In this document: in pieces, positions 8,360 through 38,608 of the stretch
Numbering within the stretch: position 1 is the first letter of the stretch
Layout: every line of letters begins with the position of its first letter
Source: a virus
Taxonomy: Duplodnaviria > Heunggongvirae > Uroviricota > Caudoviricetes
Strand: one strand, 5' to 3'
DNA: 64,000 bases
Virus record (IMG/VR): IMGVR_UViG_3300032038_000014
Location: 64,001-128,000 of that record
Notes under the pieces: model-generated
Told to the model about the DNA's origin: nothing
What the model saw: only the letters and a program-made list of their open reading frames with translations
The model's database searches: none
Translations under genes and position numbers: made by a program

Positions 8360-8396
8360 GCGGTATCTCCTTTCTATCTTTAAGTATATAAGAAAA

Positions 8397-8425
8397 AGCG
8401 GAGAGAAATGAAATTTCTCTCCGCT
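8397..8425 (-). terminator. Intrinsic terminator
   Basis: 13-bp perfect stem AGCGGAGAGAAAT/ATTTCTCTCCGCT, followed on the minus strand by TTTTTC. Confidence 0.8.
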
Positions 8426-8469
8426 ATTCATCTCTCTACTTTAGATTAATTTTTTATATAAGTAAATTT

Positions 8470-16952: not shown

Positions 16953-19900
16953 TTAATACAAGTTTTCTACTGCTTTTGTAGCAGATATTGACATCGTACC
17001 ATTATGTGTTAATGGAAATGTCAATCTTGTAATTATATATTCACCATTAATACCACTATTATCATCTCGAACTAAAATTCTATTATTTGGTTCAAGATAA
17101 TATATTGGTAATGCATTAATCGTAATTGATTCTGCACAATAAGCATATGAATATAACCAATCATTAAGCACATCCATTGCAGATTTTCCTTGTCCACTTA
17201 TTGAGAATAAATTCTCTAAATAATCAGGTAATCTGATATAAGTATATCCAGTGCCTTTTTTTTCTTTTTCCGCTTGAATATTAGTATCTGGATCGACAAA
17301 AATTACTGTAGGTACGTCTCTATAGTAAATAGAATTTATATTAGTATCATTATTAGCTTTCGTCCTATCTCCAATATTACAAACTTTATATTGATCAAGT
17401 TCGCCCTCAGTGTCTAAAAAATCAAACCAAAAATTTAATAATTCTGGATTATCTTTAATGGTATGAACCCAATGAGTATTTTTATCATAGTCATCAGAAG
17501 ATTGTGCAAAATAAATTTCATTCTTATCATATTTTAATGCTTTTAAATAATCTTTATTAGCAGGAGATAAAGCATCACATCTTCTGACAAAACAATAATT
17601 CTCTGGATGTCGTTCATATAAATCTTTATCTGGTACACTATCTAATGGTTGCATTTGATTTTTATAGTTACAAAAATAAAAAGTCCCACCACATAGTGGC
17701 TCCCAAGCCGCGGCCGCAGTCACAGCTTCTTCATAAGTCATATTAGTACAACTTTGATAAATATAATATTTATCTTTGTGCGCATTATACTTAGATTCAT
17801 TAGGAGCAACTACTGTATAAGTGTATTTATAATAAGGATTATATAAATCTCTCCAAAAACCATTTATATCAATATAATATTGTTCATATCCGGTATAACC
17901 ACCAAGATAAAGATGTGTATCATCTGGAAGAGTATTATGTTTATCTACTTTAACTAAAAAATCTTCATCGTGATGATGTTTATTATAATCAACTGACATT
18001 TGATAAATTAATTCTCGCCAATCTGATAAAATAGCTCTATCTGTGTCTAAACCTAAATCTTCAATAACAATTGTATCAATCATAGCAACTATATCATCTG
18101 TTAATTCAGATGTTGGTAATTTAGGTTTATAGATAAAAGATTGACAATTATTTGTTTCATCTAAATAAATAAATTGATTATAAGTATGACCGCATCCATT
18201 AAAACCATGTTGGAAAGGACTCCAAGTACTATTAGCATATTCTCTAGCATTTCCATTACGATCTATAAAATTATAACCAACTTTACGTCCATAAGAATTT
18301 ACGGTAGGTCCATTTCCATAAAAAGGATTATGAGTATCTCTTTCTAAATCAATAACTAATTGATTAGAAAAACTTTGAGTTGTTCCATTAGGAAATTTAA
18401 TACTTCCTTTAAATCCTTCTGTACCATAGTCTCCAATAATACGATCTGGTAAAGCTCCTGTTAATAAAAAGTAGTATTCTGCCCAGTTAGTAATATCCCA
18501 CCAATCAGAAGAACCATCTGCTTTTTTTAAACAATCTGGAACCATAATTTTCTTAAAAACAATTTTTCCAGCAGCAATAGCCTCTTCTTCTTGACGCTTT
18601 TTCATAGCTTCTTTGTATTCATCCATTAATTTTTCATATCGACCATAACCTTCAGCTGTAATATAAATATTATTATTATAACCAATATACATCCATGGTT
18701 TAGTATCTATAGCATATCTTAAATGAATAGGCAATTCAATTCCAGTTACTCCTTTTCTGACACCCCATAAAGAATAATCATTTTTTAAATCTCCAAAATT
18801 AGGAGAATTAGAAAAAGAAGTGACTAAAACTGCATTATCAAATGAATAAACACAAGAAGAAGTTTCAGCAGCATTTTGAACAAAAATTTCTACTTTTTTA
18901 GAATAATATTGTTTATTTGCATCAAAGTCATTACTTTGATCTAAATAAAATTGATTGTTATCTTCATCCAAAAGATAAAAAGTATAACCTTTATAAGTTT
19001 CTTTAGTTAAAGAAACTTTAGTATAACTTACATCTTCAGTTTCTAAATTAGTAAATGTACTTTGAATATAAGTTTTCTTTCTTTGGAATACAAAACGTCC
19101 ATCTAAATCATAAAAATATTCAAATTCTCCAAGCATTTCTTTAATTTTATCTAACATAGAAGTAACAGTTTCTCCTACGTTAGAAATTAAATCTCCTGCA
19201 TAAGTCAAATCTGTAGTTCTATAACCTATAACATCACCATATTCAGCTTTCATTAAAGTATAACGTCTTTGTTGATTAGCTGGTTTACCTACATCTTCTG
19301 GATCTATAAATTCAGTAGGATCTGGAAATTCACTATGCAATTCAGTAAGTCGATAATCAAAACAAATTTGAGATTCTGGTATATCTCCAATTAAATCTCG
19401 CGGTAAATTAAATTGCATAGTTTCAACCACTCCTGTATTAACCCCATATATAAGATACATAGGAATGTCACCTCTATATTCCAAAAGCTCAAGCCCGCAA
19501 TCATCTAAATCATTAATAATAATATTCCAATAAGGCTCTTTAGCATGTTCATGAACAGCTTCAAGAATAATATCTTTTAAAAGATAATCAGTCGTCATAA
19601 TTGAACCATCAGCATTGACAGTATCAATTTTACCAAAATCCCAGGAGAGAGGAGTTATTATTCCACCTACTTCTCCATTTAAAAGAGTCATCTTATCTTT
19701 ACCTTGAATACTAATTGTATAAGAACTGGTAGATTGTGAAGTACTAAAAGTTGAAATAACATAAGTACCCATTTTAAACCAACAAATATCTGGATATAAA
19801 TGATATTGCTCTTTATAATCAGGACGTTCTTTTATAGTATTTCGTACTCCTATATAAAGTTTAAATTTAGTATTTAAACCCCAATAAAATTCATGAATAT

Positions 19901-20129
19901 TTAATTCATGTGCGACTAAAGATAATGAGCAGGTTCTGCGGACAGCAGATGTGCCGTCCACAGAAACTGAACCTTGAGTCACTCGACCTTCAATTTTTTC
20001 AAGAGGATTCTCGTTAAAATCTAATGCGACGATTTTGGCAAAAATTTCTCGTTCTTTTTCTTGGTCGAGCAATCTTAAAAAATCTTTGTCGATTAAAAAT
20101 ATATCATCATATTTATTCAACGAGACCAT
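16953..20129 (-). CDS. Putative baseplate hub / tail-associated protein (1058 aa)
   Basis: GRVTQGSVSVDGTSAVRRTCSLSL, YFYDLDGRFVFQ and C-terminal ILVRDDNSGINGEYIITRLTFPL...MSISA are hub-like; downstream of the TMP. Confidence 0.55.
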   Translation of the reverse strand: MVSLNKYDDIFLIDKDFLRLLDQEKEREIFAKIVALDFNENPLEKIEGRVTQGSVSVDGTSAVRRTCSLSLVAHELNIHEFYWGLNTKFKLYIGVRNTIKERPDYKEQYHLYPDICWFKMGTYVISTFSTSQSTSSYTISIQGKDKMTLLNGEVGGIITPLSWDFGKIDTVNADGSIMTTDYLLKDIILEAVHEHAKEPYWNIIINDLDDCGLELLEYRGDIPMYLIYGVNTGVVETMQFNLPRDLIGDIPESQICFDYRLTELHSEFPDPTEFIDPEDVGKPANQQRRYTLMKAEYGDVIGYRTTDLTYAGDLISNVGETVTSMLDKIKEMLGEFEYFYDLDGRFVFQRKKTYIQSTFTNLETEDVSYTKVSLTKETYKGYTFYLLDEDNNQFYLDQSNDFDANKQYYSKKVEIFVQNAAETSSCVYSFDNAVLVTSFSNSPNFGDLKNDYSLWGVRKGVTGIELPIHLRYAIDTKPWMYIGYNNNIYITAEGYGRYEKLMDEYKEAMKKRQEEEAIAAGKIVFKKIMVPDCLKKADGSSDWWDITNWAEYYFLLTGALPDRIIGDYGTEGFKGSIKFPNGTTQSFSNQLVIDLERDTHNPFYGNGPTVNSYGRKVGYNFIDRNGNAREYANSTWSPFQHGFNGCGHTYNQFIYLDETNNCQSFIYKPKLPTSELTDDIVAMIDTIVIEDLGLDTDRAILSDWRELIYQMSVDYNKHHHDEDFLVKVDKHNTLPDDTHLYLGGYTGYEQYYIDINGFWRDLYNPYYKYTYTVVAPNESKYNAHKDKYYIYQSCTNMTYEEAVTAAAAWEPLCGGTFYFCNYKNQMQPLDSVPDKDLYERHPENYCFVRRCDALSPANKDYLKALKYDKNEIYFAQSSDDYDKNTHWVHTIKDNPELLNFWFDFLDTEGELDQYKVCNIGDRTKANNDTNINSIYYRDVPTVIFVDPDTNIQAEKEKKGTGYTYIRLPDYLENLFSISGQGKSAMDVLNDWLYSYAYCAESITINALPIYYLEPNNRILVRDDNSGINGEYIITRLTFPLTHNGTMSISATKAVENLY

Positions 20130-23631: not shown

Positions 23632-26600
23632 TTATCTACCTAAATAACGAATAGTAGATTTAGATGGCGATGATAATGAAACACTGCTGGAAGCAGTTCC
23701 TGAAGATAAACTAGTATCATTGGTTAATATTTTTCCAGAACTATGACCAGTTGCCCATACATTTGTAACATAACCATCGTCATTTTTTGAAAAATGAATT
23801 TCAGATAAATAATTAAAAGTTGTTGTATCTTTACTTAAGCTATAAGTATTAATATTTACACTACCACCATTCAAACTAGTTACTACACTTTTAGATTTTG
23901 CAGAATAAGTTTGACCTTTATATTTTAATACACTAGTAATATTACATGTACCTACATTAACAGTAGTAATATTTGCTGTATTTGAATAGAAACTAGTAAT
24001 AGTTGCTTTAGGTAAAATAGCATTAGTAGCTGTTAATTGACCATTACGAGTTACTAAAAATGAAGTAGCACTTGCATCTTGTAAAGAATAAGCAATATAC
24101 TTATCTCCAGAAAAATCATCATAAGTACTTTTATTTGTAGTAATCCAATTATGTCCAACCAAATCTTGATTATCTTCATCATCAACTACTGAATTAACAT
24201 CAATCCAATGAGTAGCTGTTAATCGTACAGTACCAACTGAAATTCTTGGAGAATCAGAAGACGAACCAAACTTAGAACTAAATAAAGATACTCCATAAGT
24301 AGCAGCACTTTCACCATCACTAGGGATACCATCAGAAAAAAGTCCGTATTGAGTTAATCCCCAACCGCCAATTTCTCCAGTAGTAGCATAAACTGAGCCA
24401 TCCCAACTTACTGCAAAATCTCCTTGTCCTTTTCCAGATCCACTTCCTTGACCTACAATAATTGGATATTTTGTAGCTCCACTATTAATACGAATATATT
24501 TGCCTGCATATGCTTCTCTATAATTACTATTATCTTTATCAACTCCATATTTAGCTACAATACTAAAATTATATGAAGTAATTTTTCCATTTTCTACATC
24601 AAATAATGTACCACTTTTATTTACTTTATAATTACTTGATTTTAAGAAAAATTTAGATGAAATTGTAGTAACTTTAGGTGTATTATTAGCTTCTGAAACA
24701 TTTTCATCTCCATCACTAATATCCACTTCAGTTCCAATATTTTGAGAAATTCTAAATATTTCTATAATATCAGTATCATGATCTTCATATGAGGCAGCAG
24801 CTTTAACGCTAATAAATGGATTTCCCGCACTATCAATAGTTAATCCAATAAGATTTCCAGAATCTGCAGGATATTCACTTAAAGCCTTTAAAGTAAAATT
24901 ATATCCAGTTAGTTTTTTATTAAACAAATCAAATTTAATACCACTTCGATTTGTATCACTAAATCCAGTAGATTGTATATATTCTTGATTTTTAGAAATA
25001 TGTATTAACTTAGTATTATTTTCTGTATCATCAATAATTTGTAAATAAGGATCAGAAGTAGTACCTTCTACTCCTAAATGCACTTTTGCTTGTTTATTTG
25101 TAGTAGTATCTAAAGCTCCTTTAATATTAATAATACCATTATCAATATCAATTTCCATTCCAGAAGCATCAGATGTTTTATAATCTGCACTTCTAATTAC
25201 TCCTGTATTTCCATTAATTTCAATTCTACCATGACCGCTTTTTCCAAAAAATGCAGTACCATCAATTTTTAAACCAAAACTTTGTTCGCCTTCATGATAT
25301 CCAAATACACCAGTATCAGATGATTTTCCGACTCCAATTTTTTTAGCAACATTGCCCATTAATACACCATTGAAGCGATTCTCATCATCTTTATATCCAG
25401 CTCCAACCATAGCAGACATAATAGTACCATTGTCTTCATCAATAGTTAAACTTCCGTCCCAAGAATTTAACATAGTGGAAGCATAAACTTCTTGATATAT
25501 ATGTAAAGGTTGACACCAAACTACTTGATTATTTAACTTAGCTAAAATAGATACTCGTTGATCATTAGTTGCCATATACATAGATGGTACAACTAATTCT
25601 CCAGTAGTAGCATCTATCTGAGGATAAAATTTTGTAGCATCTACACTATCTTCAAATTGTATAAACCAATTAATTCCTTCTTGTTTAACAGGTTTATTAT
25701 TTTCTATTTTATATAAAGTATATTGTCCTTTATAATACATTGGATTAACTCCAGTAGGATCATAAATAATACGATTATCTCCATCCATTGCGGTATAAGT
25801 ATTATCAAATCGTACAGCAATTGGACAATATACAGTTAAGTCTACTGTTAATTGAGATGGACTTAATTCATTAGCTATCTCTAATGCTTCAGTTTCACTC
25901 AAATCAGGATTTTCTTCTTTTACTTCTTCAAGAGTTTGATTTAAATTTGAAGATTTTATTTCAACAGCTTTATTTACTATAATTTCAATAATATAGTGAT
26001 AAAACATTGTTTTATCATTATATTCATTAGTTGTTAAATTATCTTTTCTTTCAAGAATAAAATTTTTACCATCTTGTGTAATTTCTAAAGCCTGATGTAA
26101 TGGAACTGAATATGGTATATATGTAAATAAATTTTCATCATAATCATCAGTAACTTCAATATTCTGATAATTAAAAACATGCGGCACTAGCTTAATAGGT
26201 CCTCCATGCCAGTCAAATACGGGCGTTACCATTGGAACCCATGTACCATTTTTATATTCTTCATAACTTACTGTTAAAGTATAATCTGTTCCATTTGTAC
26301 CATGTACTCCAAAATACATTGTATACTCTGCTGCAAAAGTTTTATTATTTTTATAAATTTCACATCTAACTGTATTATTAATTGCAGTTTGAGTATAATA
26401 AGATTTAATTCTAAATATTTGCTCTAAAGCTGTAGGAACAATTTCTCCTGCGACTCGATCAGTTTCAACTGCAACACCTTGGCGCTCAATGCAGAACCAC
26501 TGGTTACCATCAATCAAGCCCGCAGATATTGCATGAATAGAATTATCTTTATTTTCTTCTAATAAACTATATTCACACCCTTCAACCGGGAGTTCAATCA

Positions 26601-28701
26601 TGGTATTTTCTACTGGAAAATACCATTTGATTGTTTCTACTTTATCTAATTTCTTATCTCCGGTAATAACTTTATCAAATTCTGCAGATAAAAAACGTAT
26701 TTTTGAAGCTTCACTAGAATTCATAATTTGACCATTGGTATTATAAATGTGATAAACTCCATTAAGGCCATAATTAGGATCAGCGTCACATACAATTTTT
26801 AATCCACGTACTAATTCAATACTTGTTAAATCTGGTACTTCATGCTCATTAGTAAATTCTAAAATATCAGATTCATATAAAGTTCGTTGATTTAAATAAG
26901 AAATACGATAATTTTCTATATATTCTAAAACTGGAGACCATTCTTTTTCAGTTGGAATCCATTGTTCATTTTGACCAGAAGATTGTTGAATTGTAAATGA
27001 AAAATTATTATAATTGTATTTATCATTTAATAAACTTGTAGCTTGATAATATGCTTCACTTCCAATAGGATATTGTGCTGCAGCATTTAACAAGTCTTCT
27101 TTATATTGTTCTTCAAAAATAATTAAAGCTTGCTTTAAACGTGAAATATAAAGTTCATTAGCTAATTGTAACTGATAAATTTCTTCATCAGTTAAATTAC
27201 TAGTATCTATTTCTTTATCTTCTATAATTTCAGAAGGAAGAGAATCTAAATAATCATTTAAATTATTTTGAAATTCATACTCTAAATATTCTATAGAAGG
27301 ATATTCAATAATAGTTTTAATTTTTTCATAAGGAGCCATTGGATTTGGTTGAAAATTTTCCCAATTAAAATAATTAACCAAATTAGCAGTACCATTTTGT
27401 CCATTTTGTTCTTCCCAAAACGCTCCTGCTAAATTATCTTCTACTCCTTCTTCCATTTTCCAACGATACCAATGTACAGTAGCTAATGGAACATCTTCAT
27501 AATCATCATTTTCCCAAGTGTCTATATCTTCAATATTATCAATAGCTTGAATACTACCATCTTCATCATCAAGATGTACCCAACGCAAATGAATATTTTT
27601 TTCATTAACTATTTGTAAACCTAAATCTGTATCATCTGTTTCGTTCAGATTTAAAGAAGGATATTTTTCTTCTAAAATAGCTCTATTTATATCTGTTAAA
27701 TAAGAAGCATAAGTTAATGGCTCAAAACTATATAAAAATATTCTATCATCAGTAAAATTTTGCAAATCATAACCAAGACTAAGATAAATATCTTTAGTTA
27801 ATAAATTTGCCATAGAAAGATAAGCATTCCATTCTTGTTCATTATTACGATTAATTAATGGAATATAATTATTATTTTCATCATAAAAATCATCATCTTG
27901 ATAAAATACAAGTTGCATACCTATAATATTATCAAGACTAGAAATATCAAAAACAAGTTGTTGTTGTGACCAAGTTACAAAATTATAAGGATTACCGAAC
28001 ATATTATCAGAATCCAATTTTATATTCACAAAACTATTTGTTCTAACAGTAGAAGTACTACCTGGATCCATAGATGCTATATCTAATCTTAATCCATAAT
28101 GACCTGAAGTAATTTTGTATCCGCCTAAAAGAGATTTAAAGCTAGCCCGCAAACCAAGTCTATCAAATTGAGAAAGTTGTTCAGTAGTAACAGATACTGT
28201 ATTATTAATAGTATCTACATCAGTATCATCTTGAGAAGAAGATTGTGGTGTAATTGATAGTTCACCAGTTCTCCAAATAACAACTTCTTTTTTATCAGAA
28301 TTATTTGCAACTAATCCTTTAGTAGCTTCTGAATCAATTGTTAATAAATTGCCAGTAATATCTATATAAGTATCAAAAGGATTAATATAAGTAGAATATT
28401 CTGTATTACCAGAAATATATTTACCTGTAATATATTTAGTTTGTGTAAAATCTCCATTTGGAATGGTTACATAAACCCAAGTCCCTTCTCTATATCTAGA
28501 ATTTTCTGAATATGCAAAAAATTCAGTAGACCCATCAGAAACGATATATTCGCCTTCATCACTGTTAGATGTATCTACTATTTGACAAGTTATCGTTTTA
28601 TCAAATTGTAAATTTTCAAGACGCTTAGTTGTAATTACATCAATAGCTTGAAATAATTCATCTAGCATTTGATTATTTGTTTTTTCAATGCTTTGCGCCA
28701 T
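23632..28701 (-). CDS. Tail-tip protein (1689 aa)
   Basis: First gene after the TMP. Acidic central region; C-terminal beta-helix-like fibre segments (FAVSWDGSVYATTGEIGGWGL). Confidence 0.55.
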   Translation of the reverse strand: MAQSIEKTNNQMLDELFQAIDVITTKRLENLQFDKTITCQIVDTSNSDEGEYIVSDGSTEFFAYSENSRYREGTWVYVTIPNGDFTQTKYITGKYISGNTEYSTYINPFDTYIDITGNLLTIDSEATKGLVANNSDKKEVVIWRTGELSITPQSSSQDDTDVDTINNTVSVTTEQLSQFDRLGLRASFKSLLGGYKITSGHYGLRLDIASMDPGSTSTVRTNSFVNIKLDSDNMFGNPYNFVTWSQQQLVFDISSLDNIIGMQLVFYQDDDFYDENNNYIPLINRNNEQEWNAYLSMANLLTKDIYLSLGYDLQNFTDDRIFLYSFEPLTYASYLTDINRAILEEKYPSLNLNETDDTDLGLQIVNEKNIHLRWVHLDDEDGSIQAIDNIEDIDTWENDDYEDVPLATVHWYRWKMEEGVEDNLAGAFWEEQNGQNGTANLVNYFNWENFQPNPMAPYEKIKTIIEYPSIEYLEYEFQNNLNDYLDSLPSEIIEDKEIDTSNLTDEEIYQLQLANELYISRLKQALIIFEEQYKEDLLNAAAQYPIGSEAYYQATSLLNDKYNYNNFSFTIQQSSGQNEQWIPTEKEWSPVLEYIENYRISYLNQRTLYESDILEFTNEHEVPDLTSIELVRGLKIVCDADPNYGLNGVYHIYNTNGQIMNSSEASKIRFLSAEFDKVITGDKKLDKVETIKWYFPVENTMIELPVEGCEYSLLEENKDNSIHAISAGLIDGNQWFCIERQGVAVETDRVAGEIVPTALEQIFRIKSYYTQTAINNTVRCEIYKNNKTFAAEYTMYFGVHGTNGTDYTLTVSYEEYKNGTWVPMVTPVFDWHGGPIKLVPHVFNYQNIEVTDDYDENLFTYIPYSVPLHQALEITQDGKNFILERKDNLTTNEYNDKTMFYHYIIEIIVNKAVEIKSSNLNQTLEEVKEENPDLSETEALEIANELSPSQLTVDLTVYCPIAVRFDNTYTAMDGDNRIIYDPTGVNPMYYKGQYTLYKIENNKPVKQEGINWFIQFEDSVDATKFYPQIDATTGELVVPSMYMATNDQRVSILAKLNNQVVWCQPLHIYQEVYASTMLNSWDGSLTIDEDNGTIMSAMVGAGYKDDENRFNGVLMGNVAKKIGVGKSSDTGVFGYHEGEQSFGLKIDGTAFFGKSGHGRIEINGNTGVIRSADYKTSDASGMEIDIDNGIINIKGALDTTTNKQAKVHLGVEGTTSDPYLQIIDDTENNTKLIHISKNQEYIQSTGFSDTNRSGIKFDLFNKKLTGYNFTLKALSEYPADSGNLIGLTIDSAGNPFISVKAAASYEDHDTDIIEIFRISQNIGTEVDISDGDENVSEANNTPKVTTISSKFFLKSSNYKVNKSGTLFDVENGKITSYNFSIVAKYGVDKDNSNYREAYAGKYIRINSGATKYPIIVGQGSGSGKGQGDFAVSWDGSVYATTGEIGGWGLTQYGLFSDGIPSDGESAATYGVSLFSSKFGSSSDSPRISVGTVRLTATHWIDVNSVVDDEDNQDLVGHNWITTNKSTYDDFSGDKYIAYSLQDASATSFLVTRNGQLTATNAILPKATITSFYSNTANITTVNVGTCNITSVLKYKGQTYSAKSKSVVTSLNGGSVNINTYSLSKDTTTFNYLSEIHFSKNDDGYVTNVWATGHSSGKILTNDTSLSSGTASSSVSLSSPSKSTIRYLGR

Positions 28702-28825: not shown

Positions 28826-31800
28826 TTATTCTCTGTTTGCATATTGAGATGCTAAATTAATAACATTATCAAAAGCAGCCAATATTTCATTTCGATCTGT
28901 AGCATTAGGAAATTCTGCTGTAATATGAACATCTTGTTCAACAGGAGTTGTAGAACTGGATACTGAAGGAGCTGATAAACTACCTAAAGCACCACTTGAT
29001 GCTAATGCATTAATATCTATAATATCAGCAATTTGACGAACAGTATCTACTGCAGCAAGCATATTTTCAGTATCTTTTGCATTTAAAACTAATTCTTTTT
29101 TATGAAGAATTGCAGGCATACCTTCATTACCAGACCAATCACCAGTATATCCACCAGTATCAAATTTACGTCCTACTTTTGATCTCATTGCATTATTATA
29201 TGCTTTTTTAATATAATAACCTAATCCTCTCCAGCCTCGCCTACTACTACTGCTACTTGAACGACGCGTAGTAGTTCTACGACGACTACTAGCTTTAGGG
29301 CTACTACCTGCAGAACTGCTACTACTACTACCACTACTACCAGATCGTCTTCCACTGCCTCTACTGGAACGTCGACGGCTAGAGCGTCTACGACTGCTTC
29401 TTCTACTACTAGAACTTCTTCTGCTGCTACTACTAGAACTACTTCTTCTGGTTGCAGCAGCTCCAATTCCAATAATTTGTGACCAAACTTCTAAAAGTTT
29501 ATTAAATCCACTAACTAAATCTGTAACCTTATTAACAATATTATCAACTGTAACAGACCATTGTTGTTCAAAAGCAACTACTGAATTAACAACAGATTCA
29601 ATTGCTTGTTCAACTTCACCAACAGAAGTAGTCATTCTATCAGCAAGATCTTCTCCTTCATCTGCAATTGATTGTAAATTATCATTTGTAGAACCAGTAA
29701 AATCTTCAATGGTAGTACCAGCAGCAGAATATATATCTGCCATATCAGCTTCCCAAGTTTGTCCTGCTTCCATAGCCGTATTATAAACATCTGCAGTTGC
29801 TTCTGCCCAAGTTTGTTCATAATCAGTTAAAGTATCTATGTTTGTTAATGCAGCTAATGTAGTTTCATCCCAAGAAGTTGTTAAATCAGCATTAGCTTGA
29901 TAAACATCTCCTGTTAATGCTACATAAGTATCTGCATGAATGGTAGAAACTTCTTGTTGATTTTCTAAAGCTAAATTTAATTCATCTGTTAAAGCAGTAA
30001 AATATTCTTGATAATCAGCTTGAATATTTTGAATAGCTTGATAATATTCTTCTGTTCCTTCTCCATAAATTTCAGCAGCTTCTTGCATAGCAGCAATATA
30101 ATTATCTTCAAGTTCCATTAATTGAGTTTGTAAATTAAAAATATATTCTTCATTTAATTTTTGCATTTCATATAGTTTAGCTGCATAATCTTCTTCTGCT
30201 TGTTCAACAGCTTGTTCATCTGCTGTATATACATAAGAGAAATTACCCTCACTATCTCTACTCATACGAACTTGACTTTTTGCTTTTTGAGCTTCTTCCA
30301 TTGCCATTTGTGCGGCTTTTAATTCTAGCTCTTTTTGCATATAATCAATTTCATATTGACTTAATTTTACTTCACTTTCTCTAGCATCTAAAATTTTCTG
30401 TTGAATTTTTTGTAACTCTTGTTTAACTTTTAAATTACTTGATTCATCAATTTGCTTTTGAGCATCACGAGTAAGTTTAGTAAGTTGATACATTTTTTCA
30501 TACTCAGGAACATATACATCAGCAATTTCTTTCTTTAAATCAAAACTATTTTTAAGTCCTTCAAGATTCTCTGCTGCTCCAGCCATTTTACGGCTGAAAT
30601 CTTCAGCCATCATATTCATAGTAGACTCAAATCTATCATTAACAGCTTCAATAGCATCTGCCCAAGTAGAATAATAATTTTCTGTCATTTCTTGAGCATA
30701 ATCTTCTGCTTCTTTAAGATTTTGTTCCCATCTAATGCGTTCATCATCACGAATAAAATCTTGTACTTTAGCATATTGTTCTCTTAAATATTGTAATTGT
30801 TGATCTGCTTGATTTTTACGATCAAAAGCCATAGCAGTAGCTTCTTTAGCCAATTTTACATTAGTTTTTTCAATCTCATCATAAAGTTTGGAACTCATTT
30901 TCATATATTGACGACCAGTTAAATCAACAATATTTTTATAAGAACTAGTTACATTCCTTAAAAATTCCATTCTGTCGGTAATACGATCAAGTTTATCAAT
31001 ATTTTCTTCCATAACCGTATTAATTTCTTCAACTTGTTCTTTTAACCAATCAGACATTTTTCCAGCTTCATCCATAAGCGCTTCAATCCACTCTCGCATT
31101 TGAGAAGCTTCTGCTTCGGTAAAAGTATTTCCATCTTTTTCCATTTGTGCCTTAAGAGCATTTGGATCAATAGTACCATTCATAATTTGATTCATTACAA
31201 CATTACTATCTTTTATACCATGATTTTCAAAAATACCTTTTAATCCATTTTCATAAGTTTTAATTTTGCTAAAAGAAGAATCCATTTGTTTTCCAATATT
31301 AGCAATTCGCTCTCCAGCTTTATAAGCATCATCTTGAATTTGTTTAAGTAAGAAATCAAGAAGCTTTAATTTATCATCTTCTACATTAATTTGAAGAGTT
31401 ACTATTAAAACAGTTTTTTCTAATAACTGATCATAAAGTTTATTTTGTTCTTCTTGAAGTTTTTGTTGTTGCTCAACTAACAAATCTTCTGTTTCTTCAT
31501 ATTGTTTTAAAAATTCATTAAAAGCATCATATTGAGCCTTTGCAGCTTCAAATGCACGTTCAGCTTTTTTATCACCTTTTGTAGATTTATTATATTTTTC
31601 TACTGCGGCATTGTATTTAGCATTATTTTGTTCAATTAATGCATCATAATTTGTAAGATTGCCATAATCATCAAATTGTGCACCAATACCCAAATAATTA
31701 GAAGCACCAGCTCCAACACTTTTAAATTTACTATCAGTTTCACTCCAATATTGTTTAGAACCACTTTGTAAATTTTGTTTATCTAATTTTTGATTTGCTT

Positions 31801-34800
31801 TAATTTGATTGATATATTCTTTTTGTTTATTTATTAATTCTTTTTGTTTTGCAATATTTTGATCTAATAATTTAACCTTATCTCTGCCAAAAGCACGATC
31901 ATAAGCAGTATCAATTTTCTTTAATTGACCTTCAATAGATTGAAGTTGATTTTTAACTACATGATAACGCTCTTTTCCTTCATCAGGTTTTTTCATTGCG
32001 GCACGATTACGTTCAGCACGACGACCTCCTCTTCGACCGCCTTTATTATGCACTAAAATTTGTTGTTTACCTACATAATAATTATGATTTCCAGAGACTT
32101 CAAAGTTATAAACTATTTGAAGTTTTATTTCTATTTTAATTTTTTGAATTGGTAACCAAATACCAGAAGCAAAGAACAATAGATCTCCGGCGCGAAGTTC
32201 ACTTGCAGGTAACCATTGAACCATTCCCGCACGTTTTACATAAAATGGATGAATACCAGTTGTTTTTAAAATATCGGATCCAATATAAATACTATGAATA
32301 TCTGTCCACAGAGCATGAATCATTGTATCAACTACTGGACTATATTCATTTTGTTGAGTATTTTCATTATAAGAAAGAACAATATCTCCTTTTTTAATTT
32401 TTTCAATTGGGTAAAAACCTTGTAAAGTTGAAATTAATGTGCCTGCAATAAAACAACCACCTCCGCCGCCACCACCACCTGTGCGGCCAGAATTTCCTGC
32501 ACCTGCAGCTTTGCCTGCAAAAGTACTTCCTTCAATGACAGGGATTGTTACTGTAGATCCATTTTTATGAGAGTTAGCAAAATGTTCATCTACTGTCACA
32601 GTACCACCAGTTGAACCATCAAGACCTGAATAAGTCATTTCATAATGACCATCATTATCACTATCTTGTATATTATCAATTCGCACTTCTTTCATAGTTA
32701 CTTTAGGATTATAACCAATTGCTCCTAAAGCAGCGTTGACTTGATCAGCAGACATACCAGATTGAATAATCATACTGTTTAAAGCATCATAAAATGGAGC
32801 ATCTTCAATTTTTGCACCAACTTCAATATCTTCTAAACCGATTTGATTAATTGTATCAAAAACGCTATTAACTTGAGAATTCCAACTTTCTTCATCAAAA
32901 CCAAGTGGAATATTTTGTAATATTTGATTTTGAGCTAAAGCTAATCCCAAATCATCAATCGCAGTCATATCTCCTTCTGCTAAACGTTGAATTTCTGCCA
33001 AGTGTTCAGAAATAAAATCTTGACTTATGTCTTGATTGAACATATCGGATAAAACATCAGAAATTTCTCCAAGAACTTCTGGGGTTTGTAAGCCCATTTT
33101 ATTCCAATTCTTCCATTCTTTTTGAATAGCTTCAACTGCTTCAATAGTATCTTCCCAAGCTGCGGCAGTGTCTAATAAAGCCTCTTCATTTTCAGCAAGG
33201 CTATCATCTATCCAATCTAAATTTTTTGCATTTTCTCGTAAATAATCATTATATTCTTTAACTTTTGCAATATCCATATCATCTGCTATTGCAGAAGTTT
33301 TCTTTTGTTCATTTAATTCAGCTTGTTCATCTTTAATACCTTTAAGGCGTTCTTCAATTTGTTCATCTGTTAATGTATTTTTTAAATTTTGATAAGCTTG
33401 ATCTAATTCTTTAATTTGATCGGCAGTTAATTCTCCAGTATATTCTCCAGTTTTGGTATCGCGTTTTTCAAATTCTTCATTAATACGAGCTAAATGCCTA
33501 TCATTAATACCTGATTCTTCAGAAAATGCATTAACAGCACCAATTTTTGCAGATAAATCAGCATTAGCTGCAACGGCTTCTTCTCCAGTCTTACCTTGAA
33601 CAATTTGTTGATGACCAGATAAATCTTTTCCATTTTGGAAAGCTTCTAATGCCATTGCTTCATTGTTTAATTTATTAATTTTATCTGTAAAACCACCTAA
33701 TGCAACATCTCCTTCTTGTAAAGCAGCTTGTAAATCTTCTACAGAACCAGTAAACATATAAGTTCCACTTGCTGTTTTACTGAAGAAATCTTCTACATCT
33801 AAACCATACTTATCTAAAGTATCATATTCAGTTTGAGAAATTTCTTTTCCCGTACTTAAATCTTTTGTAATATCATTAACTGCTTTATATCTATCCTCTG
33901 GAGAAATTTCTTCTTCTGGAGATATAGATTGGAAAATACCTAACATATTAGCTAACTGACCAGAAAAAATTTCAGATTCCACTCCTGCTTTTTCTAAAGC
34001 ATTAGCTAAATCTTCAACATCAGCATTTTTCCAATCAATTTTATCTAACTCTTCTTCAAATTTAGCAACATCTCCACCATTTTCTTGAATGGTTTGTAAA
34101 AAATCAGTATATGCTTTTTGTTTAGAAATATCACCATAATTATTCATATAGATATCATCCATATGTTGCTTGATAGATTTCGCTTCATTTAAAGTAACAT
34201 CTCCTAAAGAATCAATCGTTTCTTGGAATAATTTTTTAGCACTTCCAGAAAGTCCTTTACTTAATTCTTTAAAATCAAAATCTTTAACACTTTGATTAAT
34301 ATCAGCTTCTAATTGATTAATTAACTCTTCTTGAGTTAATCCATACATATCAGCTAATTCCGCAATTTTATCACTATCAAGACTTAAAGCTTTTAATAAT
34401 TTATCTCCAGTTAATCCTTCAAGAGCATCTAATTCAGCTTTTGTTTTATCACCAACAAATTGACCAAAATCAAATTTATCATTTTCTTTATCATAATTTT
34501 GTATAGCAGAATCGGCAAAATCCTTAACTTCTTCAGAAGCATCACTTAAAAAAGCTCTAGCTTCATCTAGTGCGGTTTGAATATCACTTTGAGACATTGA
34601 AGCAACAATTATATCTGCTAATTCTTCTGGAGAATACCCTTTTCGACCTTCTTTTCCAACATCAAAATATAATTGATCTTTTTCTTCTCCTCTTTTAGCT
34701 GTTGGATGTGAACTTAATGAAACTCTTTCTCCTGTGACAGAAGATAAAGCTTCTTCTATTTTATCTCCATATAAATTTGCTATTGTTTGAGCTTGCACAC

Positions 34801-37800
34801 CACTATCGCCTGGATGAGAATCAGCCATTGTTCTAATACGACCTTCCCATATTGAAGCAAGTTCCGTTTCACCTTTGACTGCAGTTTCAGCATAAGCCTT
34901 TTCAGTATCATTATATTTATCTCCAGCAACTTCTTCTACCCTTATACCAGCAATAATACTAAATTTTTCTGCAGCTTTTAAAGCAGTATCAGACATAGTA
35001 TTAATATCATCTTGCCATTTAGTTAAATCTTCATCACTTAAATGAGAAATATCAATACCTAATTGTTGAAATTTTTTCTTTAAATCATCTGTATCAATTG
35101 CAGAAGATAAATCTTCTAAATTATTTTTAATAACATCTTGATATTTACTATCATAAGCATCTAAAGAAGAAAGAGAATCTGTTAAACTGCCAGATCCCAT
35201 TTCTTTAATTAAATCTTTAATACCTACAGTTAGTTCTGCTTGAGTAGCTCTATAATCTGCTAATGCTGTAGCATATTCCATATTAGATGCAGCATCATCA
35301 GCTTTAGTTTGAGCTTTATCTAAAATAGTAGAATCTAAAGTTCCATTTTCTTTAAATCCTTTAGCTAATTTTTGATAATCTTCAGTACTTAAAAATTCTC
35401 CTACATTATTAAGAGTTTCAATTGCTGCTCGATTAGTTTCTCTTAAAGCATCTCGCCACTCTTTAGTTCCTTTTGTACAATTTTCAAGTTTTTCTACACA
35501 AGAATCATAAGTTTCAATTGTAGATTTTAAATCACTTGCAGCCTGTTTAGCTTCTCCAGTTTTTTCAGTTAAATCTTCAACTGTTTGTCTTGCTCTTTCA
35601 GCTGCATTTTCTTCACTATTTAAAGCATTAACTAATGCTTTAATAATCATTATTACACTAGCAACTACAGCTACTGCGGCCGCCATTGCTGCAACATATG
35701 GTAGCATTGCAGCCAAGCCCGCAAGTCTAGCTTTTACAACTTCCCAAATTGCTGTAGCTAAACCTCCATGAGCCACAGTATCAGTTGCTGCTGCACCAGC
35801 TTCTATTAACTCTTCAGCAGCTTCTTCTCCACTAGCTGCAGCATCTGCCTTTTTAGCAGCAACACTCTGCCAACCTACAATTATTTCATCTTTTTTAATA
35901 GCTTGTAAACCAAATAAACTAGCTAATTCTTCTTTATTTAAAGCAAGTTTTTTAATTTTTTCAATATTTTCTGCTTTAAAAGCAGAAGTTAAAGACATAG
36001 TTACAATTCCTAAAGAAGTAATAGTAGAAATTAATTTATCTCCTAAAGAAAGATCTTCATTACTCCAAATAGAACCAAGAGATTTTACAGAACTAAGTGC
36101 CATACCAAAAGACATTAAAGCAGACCCAGCTGCAGTAATACCTTGACCAACTCTTTGAGATACTGTAGCTTGAAAATTAGTAAATATTTCTGTAGCCATT
36201 TGAGTTTGTTCTTTTAAAGTTCCTACTCCAGCTGCACCTTCAGCTGCTCTAGCTCCAACATCGGACATTGCTTTTGCAGCTTCTTCTACTTTTGCTCGCA
36301 ATTCATCCCAAGCTTTAGATCCTTCTTTAATACCGTTCGCCTCAGCTTGAATTTTAGTTATTTTATCAACAATTTTATCAAAACTTGTTCCAGAATTTCC
36401 TATTATAGTTGTCCAATCACTCCATGCTTGTTTTAATTCTTTAATATGAACACTACCTTCTGTAGAATTTTCTTTTAATCGATTAAAAATTGTTCCTAAT
36501 CGAGAACCTAAAATACTTTCTGCAGATTCACCTACTTCTTGAAATCCTTGTTCTAAATTTTTTAGATCAGCATTTAATTGTTTAATTGATTCTTGATTAT
36601 TACTATTCCATTTCATTCCATTCATAGAAGTTGCTAATTGAGAATCAATTTCTTGTGCTGCTCCTATTTGTTGTAATCGACCTTGTTGACCTTTAAATTC
36701 AGACTCGACAGCTTCTCGATTTCTTTTTCCATTAGTTGCAAGAACGACTTCTCGCTCTAATGCAGTAGCTTCTTTTTCTGCCTCTTGAGCAGCTTCAGCT
36801 TGCAATCTAACATTATCTCCTAAAGCTTTATTTTGATCTAATAATAATTGAGCAATAGTCTGTTGTTCAGCACTCATGCTTTCAGCAGAATTTAAATAAG
36901 CATTTTGTAAATCACCTTGAGCTTGATAACTTGCTGCTATATTAGCTCCACCAAGAGTTCCTTGCTCAACATTGGTTTTAGCTAATAAAGCATTAACATC
37001 TTGTCTTTGTTGTTCGACATATTGTTGACCACCCATCATAGCCAGTTGAAATCCAGAAGTTAATTTAGCAATTCCATTACTTAAATCTTGATTAAATATT
37101 TTAGTAATAATAGACCCTAATAATAATAAGGTTCCTTTCATACCTCCTAAACCATCAACTGCATCATCAATAACTTTTAAAAATCCTGCAAAACCATTTG
37201 CTAAACCAATAAAAAATTTATCATCTAAAATACTTTGATAAATGGCTTCCCAAGCAGCTCTTACACGTTTTTGAGCGCCTTCCCAAGATTCAGCATAAAT
37301 ATCAGCTTGTTCTTGTAAAGTTCCCTCTGCTCCTTCTGCAATAAGCACATTTTCTTTCATTTTGTCCCAATTATCCATAAGAGCAATTAAGTTAGTATAT
37401 TGTCTAACACCACCAACTGTTTGAGCCAAAGCAACTTGTTGAGCTTTAGATAATTCATTCCAACGACCACCTAAATCATTAAGAATATCATCCATATTTC
37501 TTAATTCACCAGAAGTATCTAATACTTTAACTCCAACAGCATCTAATGCTTGAGAATATTTATTAAGATCAACACCATCTTCTAAAGTATCACCAAGTTT
37601 TAAACTTTCTAATCTACTAAACAATGTTCTTAAACCAGTACCGACAGTATCTGCACTTTGACGAGTTTGTGCAGTAATTGTAGCCATAGCTGCAGTAGCA
37701 TACTCATAAGATAAACCAACAGTATCTGCTATTGCCGCGAATTTTTCTAAACCGGCAGCTATTTCTTGAGAACTTGAAGCGGTTGCAGCACCTAAAGCCG

Positions 37801-38608
37801 TAATTACATCAGCATAATATTCTAAATTTTGTGATCCATCATCAAAGTTATTCCAAATTGCAGTCATCTCTTGAGAAACTTCTTCAGCGCTTTGCCTACT
37901 AACATTAGCTAATTTAATAGTAGTTTCAGTTCTTTCTGCAATTTCTTCTTGATCTCGAATACCCTGTTGATAATAAATTAATGCGGCATCAGTATAACTC
38001 GTTGTAGTTGTACTTAATGCTTGTGCTGCTTTATTAGCTCTCTCGGCAAAACCGGCCATTTCTTCAGTTGATTGACCAGTAACAATTCGAATATTATTTA
38101 AAGATCCATTTAAATCTTGTGCATATCCATATGCTCCTTGAAGAGCACCCATAAAACCATGTAACATACTAGATGAAATTTGCCACCTAGCAGTATTTTT
38201 TAAGGTAGTAGCAAACTGACCTAACATTGTATTTGCATTTCGTAATCTAGCATCTGCATTATTAATAGAAGCAGCTAAAGACGCAAAAGCTTTATCTCCT
38301 TCTGGGCCTAATCGGCTTAATTGCTGTTGGTATTTTTTTAAAGACATACCGCTTTCAGTCATAGATTGCGTAAATTTTGTTAAATCTAATTTACCAGTAT
38401 TAACATCTGTAGCATTTTGCAATTGAGCTTTTAATTGAGTTGCTGCAGTTGTTGCTTGTTGTAATTCTTTAGTTAAAGCTAATTTACCATTATTACGTCC
38501 AGCTATATTAACTAAATTTGTTAATTGCTGTTGCAATTGCATAATTTGAGCTTTAGCTTGCCCAGTATCTGCAGTAAAAGCAAGATTAACATTCAATTGT
38601 TTAGCCAT
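28826..38608 (-). CDS. Tail tape measure protein (3260 aa) with inserted HINT domain
   Basis: TP901-type TMP N-terminus (FAERANKAAQALSTTT..., ALGAATASSSQEIA), long Ala-rich helical composition, and C-terminal FDTGGYTG...AILHKKELVLN motif. Confidence 0.92.
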   Translation of the reverse strand: MAKQLNVNLAFTADTGQAKAQIMQLQQQLTNLVNIAGRNNGKLALTKELQQATTAATQLKAQLQNATDVNTGKLDLTKFTQSMTESGMSLKKYQQQLSRLGPEGDKAFASLAASINNADARLRNANTMLGQFATTLKNTARWQISSSMLHGFMGALQGAYGYAQDLNGSLNNIRIVTGQSTEEMAGFAERANKAAQALSTTTTSYTDAALIYYQQGIRDQEEIAERTETTIKLANVSRQSAEEVSQEMTAIWNNFDDGSQNLEYYADVITALGAATASSSQEIAAGLEKFAAIADTVGLSYEYATAAMATITAQTRQSADTVGTGLRTLFSRLESLKLGDTLEDGVDLNKYSQALDAVGVKVLDTSGELRNMDDILNDLGGRWNELSKAQQVALAQTVGGVRQYTNLIALMDNWDKMKENVLIAEGAEGTLQEQADIYAESWEGAQKRVRAAWEAIYQSILDDKFFIGLANGFAGFLKVIDDAVDGLGGMKGTLLLLGSIITKIFNQDLSNGIAKLTSGFQLAMMGGQQYVEQQRQDVNALLAKTNVEQGTLGGANIAASYQAQGDLQNAYLNSAESMSAEQQTIAQLLLDQNKALGDNVRLQAEAAQEAEKEATALEREVVLATNGKRNREAVESEFKGQQGRLQQIGAAQEIDSQLATSMNGMKWNSNNQESIKQLNADLKNLEQGFQEVGESAESILGSRLGTIFNRLKENSTEGSVHIKELKQAWSDWTTIIGNSGTSFDKIVDKITKIQAEANGIKEGSKAWDELRAKVEEAAKAMSDVGARAAEGAAGVGTLKEQTQMATEIFTNFQATVSQRVGQGITAAGSALMSFGMALSSVKSLGSIWSNEDLSLGDKLISTITSLGIVTMSLTSAFKAENIEKIKKLALNKEELASLFGLQAIKKDEIIVGWQSVAAKKADAAASGEEAAEELIEAGAAATDTVAHGGLATAIWEVVKARLAGLAAMLPYVAAMAAAVAVVASVIMIIKALVNALNSEENAAERARQTVEDLTEKTGEAKQAASDLKSTIETYDSCVEKLENCTKGTKEWRDALRETNRAAIETLNNVGEFLSTEDYQKLAKGFKENGTLDSTILDKAQTKADDAASNMEYATALADYRATQAELTVGIKDLIKEMGSGSLTDSLSSLDAYDSKYQDVIKNNLEDLSSAIDTDDLKKKFQQLGIDISHLSDEDLTKWQDDINTMSDTALKAAEKFSIIAGIRVEEVAGDKYNDTEKAYAETAVKGETELASIWEGRIRTMADSHPGDSGVQAQTIANLYGDKIEEALSSVTGERVSLSSHPTAKRGEEKDQLYFDVGKEGRKGYSPEELADIIVASMSQSDIQTALDEARAFLSDASEEVKDFADSAIQNYDKENDKFDFGQFVGDKTKAELDALEGLTGDKLLKALSLDSDKIAELADMYGLTQEELINQLEADINQSVKDFDFKELSKGLSGSAKKLFQETIDSLGDVTLNEAKSIKQHMDDIYMNNYGDISKQKAYTDFLQTIQENGGDVAKFEEELDKIDWKNADVEDLANALEKAGVESEIFSGQLANMLGIFQSISPEEEISPEDRYKAVNDITKDLSTGKEISQTEYDTLDKYGLDVEDFFSKTASGTYMFTGSVEDLQAALQEGDVALGGFTDKINKLNNEAMALEAFQNGKDLSGHQQIVQGKTGEEAVAANADLSAKIGAVNAFSEESGINDRHLARINEEFEKRDTKTGEYTGELTADQIKELDQAYQNLKNTLTDEQIEERLKGIKDEQAELNEQKKTSAIADDMDIAKVKEYNDYLRENAKNLDWIDDSLAENEEALLDTAAAWEDTIEAVEAIQKEWKNWNKMGLQTPEVLGEISDVLSDMFNQDISQDFISEHLAEIQRLAEGDMTAIDDLGLALAQNQILQNIPLGFDEESWNSQVNSVFDTINQIGLEDIEVGAKIEDAPFYDALNSMIIQSGMSADQVNAALGAIGYNPKVTMKEVRIDNIQDSDNDGHYEMTYSGLDGSTGGTVTVDEHFANSHKNGSTVTIPVIEGSTFAGKAAGAGNSGRTGGGGGGGGCFIAGTLISTLQGFYPIEKIKKGDIVLSYNENTQQNEYSPVVDTMIHALWTDIHSIYIGSDILKTTGIHPFYVKRAGMVQWLPASELRAGDLLFFASGIWLPIQKIKIEIKLQIVYNFEVSGNHNYYVGKQQILVHNKGGRRGGRRAERNRAAMKKPDEGKERYHVVKNQLQSIEGQLKKIDTAYDRAFGRDKVKLLDQNIAKQKELINKQKEYINQIKANQKLDKQNLQSGSKQYWSETDSKFKSVGAGASNYLGIGAQFDDYGNLTNYDALIEQNNAKYNAAVEKYNKSTKGDKKAERAFEAAKAQYDAFNEFLKQYEETEDLLVEQQQKLQEEQNKLYDQLLEKTVLIVTLQINVEDDKLKLLDFLLKQIQDDAYKAGERIANIGKQMDSSFSKIKTYENGLKGIFENHGIKDSNVVMNQIMNGTIDPNALKAQMEKDGNTFTEAEASQMREWIEALMDEAGKMSDWLKEQVEEINTVMEENIDKLDRITDRMEFLRNVTSSYKNIVDLTGRQYMKMSSKLYDEIEKTNVKLAKEATAMAFDRKNQADQQLQYLREQYAKVQDFIRDDERIRWEQNLKEAEDYAQEMTENYYSTWADAIEAVNDRFESTMNMMAEDFSRKMAGAAENLEGLKNSFDLKKEIADVYVPEYEKMYQLTKLTRDAQKQIDESSNLKVKQELQKIQQKILDARESEVKLSQYEIDYMQKELELKAAQMAMEEAQKAKSQVRMSRDSEGNFSYVYTADEQAVEQAEEDYAAKLYEMQKLNEEYIFNLQTQLMELEDNYIAAMQEAAEIYGEGTEEYYQAIQNIQADYQEYFTALTDELNLALENQQEVSTIHADTYVALTGDVYQANADLTTSWDETTLAALTNIDTLTDYEQTWAEATADVYNTAMEAGQTWEADMADIYSAAGTTIEDFTGSTNDNLQSIADEGEDLADRMTTSVGEVEQAIESVVNSVVAFEQQWSVTVDNIVNKVTDLVSGFNKLLEVWSQIIGIGAAATRRSSSSSSSRRSSSSRRSSRRRSSRRRSSRGSGRRSGSSGSSSSSSAGSSPKASSRRRTTTRRSSSSSSRRGWRGLGYYIKKAYNNAMRSKVGRKFDTGGYTGDWSGNEGMPAILHKKELVLNAKDTENMLAAVDTVRQIADIIDINALASSGALGSLSAPSVSSSTTPVEQDVHITAEFPNATDRNEILAAFDNVINLASQYANRE
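32045..32455 (-). other. HINT (mini-intein/BIL-type) domain, 137 aa, TMP residues 2052-2188
   Basis: Block A CFIAGT..., block B TTGIHPF, block F VYNFEVSGNHNYYV, block G ILVHN. The +1 residue is Lys and there is no homing endonuclease. Confidence 0.92.

Follow-up and report, generated by a model that had tools for sequence, protein, structure and literature searches.

The 64,000-nucleotide stretch of DNA analysed here (the window; positions 64,001 to 128,000 of the IMG/VR virus record IMGVR_UViG_3300032038_000014, a member of the Caudoviricetes) encodes a giant tape measure protein (TMP), P0001, that is interrupted in mid-sequence by a HINT domain of 137 amino acids (aa) followed by a Lys residue. 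Most likely, this insert is a bacterial intein-like (BIL) cassette of the A type, made up of the domain and its trailing Lys, which would be obligatorily self-removing and not a purpose-built maturation protease. Because its catalytic residues are conserved, the domain is very probably active in autoprocessing; that the TMP flanks would be rejoined on excision rather than left cut is an evenly balanced prospect. The length of the TMP sets the length of the tail, and little is understood so far about how TMPs mature. With a self-processing domain at mid-ruler, a large family of uncultured siphophages of 130-200 kb, many with TAG or TGA as a sense codon, would offer a processing step that is well defined and open to testing.

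A BIL-type HINT domain within a glycine linker of the tape measure protein

The HINT domain spans residues 2052-2188 of P0001 (32045-32455; this and all other window features below lie on the minus strand). Its N-side flank reads GGGGGGGG, with a run of eight Gly at residues 2044-2051 (positions -8 to -1; 32456-32479, by direct reading), and its C-side flank is the basic linker KGGRRGGRR (residues 2189-2197; 32018-32044), which places Lys2189 at +1. Within the domain we located the block A nucleophile Cys1 (32453-32455), block B as T66-G-I-H69 (residues 2117-2120; 32249-32260), and blocks F and G, which run from VYNFEV to ILVHN (residues 2166-2188; 32045-32113) and end in His136-Asn137. Block F reads VYNFEVSGNHNYYVG; here Asn replaces the Asp of class 1 inteins, as it does in the BIL domain of C. 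thermocellum (2LWY).

An earlier reading of the letters of this stretch (the sequence-only reading) had described the same coordinates, length, Cys1, TxxH, block F, terminal His-Asn, Gly8 run, KGGRRGGRR and +1 Lys, all of which proved correct on rereading. Its view of the domain as intact and of the BIL/pretoxin-HINT (PT-HINT) kind that lacks a +1 nucleophile was likewise borne out: the PT-HINT profile PF07591 matched over its positions 1-136 of 137 with 79 bits (cut-off 27.7, E 5.2e-22), while Intein_splicing (29.3 bits, cut-off 35.8) and Hint_2 (28.3 bits, cut-off 28.4) both fell under theirs. Among solved structures, 2LWY was the best relative by profile (E 1.4e-22), followed by BIL2 of the Tetrahymena BUBL protein (E 7e-10 to ~1e-9), with mini-inteins ranking below BIL2. 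An AlphaFold model built from a five-sequence alignment was all-beta, with a mean predicted local distance difference test (pLDDT) score of 80 and values below 50 at residues 128-139, including the Lys+1 region; a Foldseek search with this model returned the same order as the profile ranking, with 2LWY first at 39% identity. The length of 137 aa leaves no room for an endonuclease, and no indels occur in the first five aligned copies. Judged by its sequence, the TMP insert has every sequence feature of an A-type BIL: blocks A, B, F and G, mini size, no +1 nucleophile, and sporadic presence in a variable linker. A profile scan of the whole 132-kb virus record found no further PT-HINT.

Other HINT classes were considered and rejected. 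A canonical class 1 intein is incompatible with Lys at +1, with the Intein_splicing score under cut-off and with a site in a low-complexity linker instead of a conserved motif. The Hedgehog-type Hog class was dismissed since the domain has no adduct region and is not C-terminal, 1072 aa of TMP following it, and the Hedgehog Hint profile PF01079 was not significant (E 0.093, under cut-off). A toxin-releasing PT-HINT was discarded on the grounds that the C flank is ordinary TMP.

The host gene (28826-38608, 3260 aa) is a single open frame of ~9.8 kb under the standard code (table 11), and its N and C parts are homologous to those of many giant TMPs. Residues 192-400 match the PhageMin_Tail domain (PF10145, E 6.4e-28, 98 bits; 37409-38035), and in the locus of the closest relative a tail-tube gene (YomU_Tube) lies upstream of the TMP gene. 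On these two features P0001 qualifies as a phage tape measure protein; besides this TMP core domain, it has 78 homologous giant open reading frames (ORFs) from large viral contigs.

Lys-tailed HINT copies in other giant tape measure proteins

A profile search over 1.84 billion representatives gave 26,317 hits, with 165 proteins below 1e-30; at the head of this list stood giant proteins (2500-3950 aa) with homology to P0001 in its N part as well as its C part. HINT domains of this clade occur, in one to three tandem copies, in at least 17 further giant TMPs. The copies total 29, each with a score of 175 bits or more, and come from no fewer than 20 protein clusters. Single copies occur in P0010, P0015-18, P0021-23 and P0027, two in P0005, P0006 and P0008, and three in P0004. 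On two large viral contigs (L004 1763-14677 and L005 389-14047), TMPs of 4304 and 4552 aa, with TAG read as sense, each contain a tandem pair of 137-aa copies at the position that the domain has in P0001.

Although the 29 copies are only ~50% identical, 30 positions are invariant among them, including every catalytic residue: Cys1, T66 and H69 are found in 29/29, and towards the C-end V115, N117, E119, V120, H124, N125, Y126, Y127, V128, L134, H136 and N137 never vary. The conservation extends into the flanks, with Lys at +1 in 29/29 copies, Gly at +2 in 27/29, Gly (14) or Ser (13) at -1, and Gly at -2 in 21. Where copies stand in arrays within TMPs, they are separated by nothing but KG, KGG, KGS, KGRS, KGGG or KGGGGGG, that is, by two to seven residues. 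For protein chemistry, the clade appears to offer natural 137-aa HINT modules with pure Gly linkers, head-to-tail arrays and Lys at +1.

The same HINT subfamily is also present in a Tim44-like membrane protein (four copies), a subtilase and surface proteins with Listeria-Bacteroides repeats. In the distant HINTs outside TMPs in the 165-protein list, the +1 residue is variable, though many of them do have a Lys at +1 or +2. Head-to-tail arrays of four to seven HINT domains, with spacers down to a single Lys, were seen in P0013, P0056 (which also has a Tim44-like domain), P0126, P0083 and P0105, and a neighbouring group of C-terminal HINTs conserves Lys at +2 (HN-x-K). An 856-aa ORF on a 117-kb viral contig (L006 7862-10432) has a PT-HINT at residues 724-850, a few residues before the stop, as an "end-cap" HINT without a C flank.

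The closest HINTs detected by tblastn in 50,697 phage records were only 29-39% identical. Three of the matching records were inspected and are Ruminococcus phages, with the matches in unannotated non-TMP proteins; other rows were annotated as methylases, helicases, ribonucleotide reductase (RNR) or terminase. In L001 and L002 (Ruminococcus phages NatCom_3870 and NatCom_29429, gut phages of "Ca. Heliusvirales"), HINTs of 35-39% identity lie in unannotated proteins near an FtsK/SpoIIIE-like gene, at up to three places per record.

Sporadic presence and constraint of the cassette

We fetched 78 homologous TMP loci (L025-L102) from viral contigs through a conserved C-terminal TMP segment. As judged from their reading frames, TAG is a sense codon in 43 and TGA in three (L073, L093 and L094), and the other 32 follow the standard code; in the TAG-sense relatives, frames of ~3000-4500 codons are broken only by TAG. 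The HINT domain is present in only two of the 78 loci, both of them contigs already known. Of the TMP genes, 76 are complete, encode 2569-3943 aa and are single ORFs across the linker, and with all HMMER filters off none of the 76 HINT-less TMPs yielded a decayed HINT remnant. Alignment of homologous TMPs at the Gly linker, proposed in the sequence-only reading as a check, gave a plain result: in HINT-less loci the linker is an uninterrupted Gly/Arg-rich tract, without Lys in the nearest ones, lying ~25 residues ahead of a conserved ERYH motif. In P0001 this motif (residues 2213-2216; 31961-31972) opens the C-terminal coiled-coil part, and whether or not a TMP has the HINT, the motif stands ~25 aa past the linker.

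The closest relatives are informative about what was inserted. P0023, which shares 63% identity with P0001 in the C part, has neither HINT nor Lys at this first site, which reads GGGGGGRGGGGGGRRGGGGRQAERNR. Its clade HINT lies instead in a second linker, 152 aa from the end of the protein, in the layout G...S/C...HN/KGGGG (slashes mark the domain boundaries), where P0001 has a Ser/Arg-rich tract without HINT (about residues 3052-3128; 29225-29455, by comparison with P0023 and P0010). The empty site of P0023 lacks both HINT and Lys, and the clade HINT in its other linker has the Lys; the unit that is gained or lost is thus evidently the HINT together with its trailing Lys, and it appears to target Gly-rich linkers. 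P0010, the closest relative, 79% identical to P0001 in the N part, combines a HINT at the first site with a divergent HINT at the second. The latter (residues 3132-3280, locus L103) scores 51 bits to the clade profile, retains Cys1 and His-Asn, has Ile at +1 and lies just ahead of a GGYVGDW C-terminal module. The corresponding module of P0001, from GGYTGDW to QYANRE (residues 3140-3260; 28829-29191), is kept in P0002, P0003, P0010 and P0023.

Substitution patterns indicate that the HINT domain is under purifying selection. Between P0001 and P0010, the ratio of nonsynonymous to synonymous substitution rates (dN/dS) is 0.20 for the HINT; the adjoining TMP segments have values of 0.23-0.42, and the N-terminal core has 0.07. 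Decay without constraint, which the sequence-only reading had named as evidence that would tell against a function, was accordingly not seen, either as decayed copies or in this ratio. Comparing P0001 with L103, dS is 0.33 within the HINT and 0.55-0.68 in the flanking TMP segments; with only 137 codons this low value may be due to chance, or the two lineages may have exchanged the cassette more recently. The GC fraction is 0.29 for the HINT and 0.32 for the TMP, giving no compositional sign of recent foreign origin. In the tree, the copies of P0001 and P0010 form a group with those that come first in the arrays of P0004 and P0005 (support 96/96), and the last copies of these two arrays pair separately (85/84). 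The two groupings indicate that the arrays are old and positionally orthologous, and that copy number has changed by gain or loss.

Sporadic presence, varying copy number and occurrence of the same cassette in unrelated proteins together point to an obligatorily self-removing element. This view departs in part from the sequence-only reading, which had proposed that the phage domesticated a HINT domain as a built-in TMP maturation protease. That the domain is intact, constrained and very likely autoprocessing holds; the distribution does not support the rest of the proposal, given 76 of 78 loci without the domain, one to three copies where it is present, a different linker in P0023 and unrelated host proteins elsewhere. 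Nor does it follow that retention without an endonuclease signifies function, as had been argued, since any insert forced to remove itself from an essential protein would keep its catalytic residues.

Fate of the flanking segments

In the scheme we propose, the cassette must leave the TMP precursor for the ruler to work. Cys1 would form a thioester with the preceding Gly via an N-to-S acyl shift, assisted by T66 and H69, after which Asn137 would cyclise with the help of His136 and cut the HN-K bond. The freed amino group of Lys+1 would then attack the Gly thioester and rejoin the TMP halves, as in BIL-type splicing by aminolysis, producing a linker that reads ...GGGGGGGG-KGGRR... and resembles the unbroken Gly/Arg linker seen in relatives that lack the HINT. 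Cleaved by-products would arise where the thioester is hydrolysed.

Rejoining fits several features of the family. A continuous chain is the norm, since all 76 complete homologous genes are single ORFs across the linker, and gain, loss and copy-number change among otherwise collinear TMPs would be easiest if the product stayed unchanged. All eight internal junctions of TMP arrays keep both the upstream His-Asn and the downstream Cys1, with the cut sites two to seven residues apart, and across all arrays the two are kept at 60/61 and 61/61 junctions, respectively, although these counts favour copies that the profile alignment covered to both termini. Retention of both cut residues, redundant for mere cutting, favours rejoining. 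Precedent exists as well: according to passages in PMC7765530 and PMC7664689, flank joining by A-type BILs that have no nucleophilic side chain for it was reported by Dassa (2004) and by Aranko (2013, the paper on 2LWY). The statement in the sequence-only reading that such domains mainly autocleave is therefore incomplete. Reviews describe the products of BIL domains as mainly N- and C-cleaved (PMC7664689).

Those reviews weigh against rejoined flanks, as does the bias in the junction counts, and further points lie on the same side. Tail morphogenesis in T5 and lambda includes cutting of the TMP, with both pieces retained in the T5 tail (PMC10038345), so that a two-piece TMP can work. Aminolysis by the alpha-amine alone leaves the requirement for Lys at +1 unexplained. 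Moreover, no cultured phage among the 50,697 phage records carries a HINT of this clade, and all relatives are metagenomic.

A strong rival, if a less likely one than rejoining, is that the HINT would only cut, severing both junctions to leave an N piece of ~2051 aa and a C piece of ~1072 aa that are held together non-covalently in the tail or meet separate fates; the domain would then substitute for the protease of other TMPs and constitute the first identified autonomous TMP maturation device. The lack of Cys, Ser or Thr at +1 and the mostly cleaved products described for BILs speak for it, as do T5 pb2, whose C-peptide remains in the tip, and the second HINT site of relatives, which at ~150 aa from the TMP end is near the processing position of other phages. 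It sits poorly with the plain linker that replaces the domain in 76 of 78 loci, with the same cassette in unrelated proteins, and with the fact that none of the 76 complete homologues encodes the halves as separate genes; one to three copies with full retention of redundant catalytic residues at array junctions would also be unexpected, and if the cut came spontaneously, ahead of assembly, the N part would lose its connection to the C part anchored at the tip.

The invariant Lys prompts a different, rather improbable reading, in which its epsilon-amine would attack the Gly thioester, in the same chain or in a neighbouring chain of the TMP trimer, to form a Gly-Lys isopeptide or cross-link, as BUBL BIL2 does with ubiquitin-like cargo. 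Lys at +1 in 29/29 TMP copies and at 50/61 array junctions, spacers down to a single Lys, and an N flank ending in Gly-Gly like ubiquitin-type cargo are all consistent with this chemistry, and BUBL BIL2 (6Y75, 6TMM), the second-best solved relative, is reported to yield an isopeptide between a Lys epsilon-amine and a C-terminus by splicing (PMC8616854, section 2.4). Identity to BIL2 is only 22-23%, however, and the nucleophilic Lys of BUBL lies inside a folded C-flank domain and not at +1. The Lys may instead serve folding, Asn cyclisation or charge, and the low confidence of the model at residues 128-139 makes the geometry unreadable. Should Lys+1 be the nucleophile, this would amount to "isopeptide splicing", an enzyme-free, ubiquitin-like Gly-Lys ligation in a virus tail with tandem arrays as repeated ligation modules. 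We give very little credence to a domain without catalytic activity that would stay in the mature TMP as a knob or plug, for which nothing specific speaks: catalytic residues invariant over copies ~50% identical, and clean presence or absence among close relatives with no degenerate forms, run counter to it. Three folded HINTs per TMP trimer are also unlikely to fit the lumen of the tail tube, given siphophage tube dimensions. If the flanks are instead rejoined, through a peptide or an isopeptide bond, the cassette would provide a nucleophile-free ligation tool and widen the known splicing chemistry.

Relation to known HINT systems

The closest counterpart is the A-type BIL of C. thermocellum (2LWY; Amitai 2003, Dassa 2004, Aranko 2013), which shares the length of ~137 aa, absence of an endonuclease, Cys1, TxxH, the block F Asn, His-Asn, the lack of a +1 nucleophile and a variable host region. 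The present cassette differs from it in residing in a phage TMP, where its linker is Gly-rich in every case, its +1 Lys never varies, and as many as three copies stand in tandem with spacers of two to seven residues. By its TMP host, its Gly-linker habitat with tandem arrays and its invariant +1 Lys, it is a distinct variant within the A-type BIL/PT-HINT class. Tetrahymena thermophila BUBL BIL2 (6Y75/6TMM; Chiarini 2021) is likewise a BIL-type HINT with an N flank ending in Gly-Gly, and in its reported chemistry a Lys amine is coupled to the thioester (PMC8616854). It differs in belonging to a eukaryotic polyubiquitin-like locus, at 22-23% identity, with its Lys within a ubiquitin-like fold, whereas the TMP HINT has no ubiquitin-like cargo. 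The pretoxin-HINTs of polymorphic toxins (Rhs, MafB, CdiA) belong to the same Pfam family, PF07591, whose cut-off the TMP HINT exceeds; in contrast to them, no toxin follows the TMP HINT, whose C flank is the conserved TMP C part also present in HINT-less homologues.

HINT-fold inserts in TMPs have been noted in an actinobacteriophage survey, which lists the TMP as a host of class 1 and class 3 inteins (bioRxiv 10.1101/2025.01.02.630785); the present domain differs from these in its +1 Lys, Intein_splicing score under cut-off and low-complexity linker site. Proteolytic TMP maturation, exemplified by T5 pb2 (cut after R1127) and lambda gpH, demonstrates that a cut TMP can function in the tail (PMC10038345), a state that cutting by the HINT alone would mimic. 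Those cuts occur during tail morphogenesis, whereas the HINT site is in mid-protein and not near the C-end. Our literature search found no paper on BIL domains in TMPs or on a Lys-tailed BIL subfamily; papers combining tape measure with intein or Hint otherwise concern non-TMP inteins, namely those of TerL and RNR in phiCbK and of an unrelated larger protein in a Staphylococcus phage. We know of no HINT domain in the TMPs of T5 or lambda.

Genomic surroundings of the tape measure gene

The TMP gene had no megablast match among the 50,697 phage records, and a scan of viral contigs using the C flank alone also gave none. PHROG matches of neighbouring genes are mostly of "unknown function". Downstream of the TMP gene lie four more very large ORFs, at 1322-8431 (2369 aa), 11326-16590 (1754 aa), 16953-20129 (1058 aa) and 23632-28701 (1689 aa, without a PHROG match), which presumably encode tail tip and fibre proteins.

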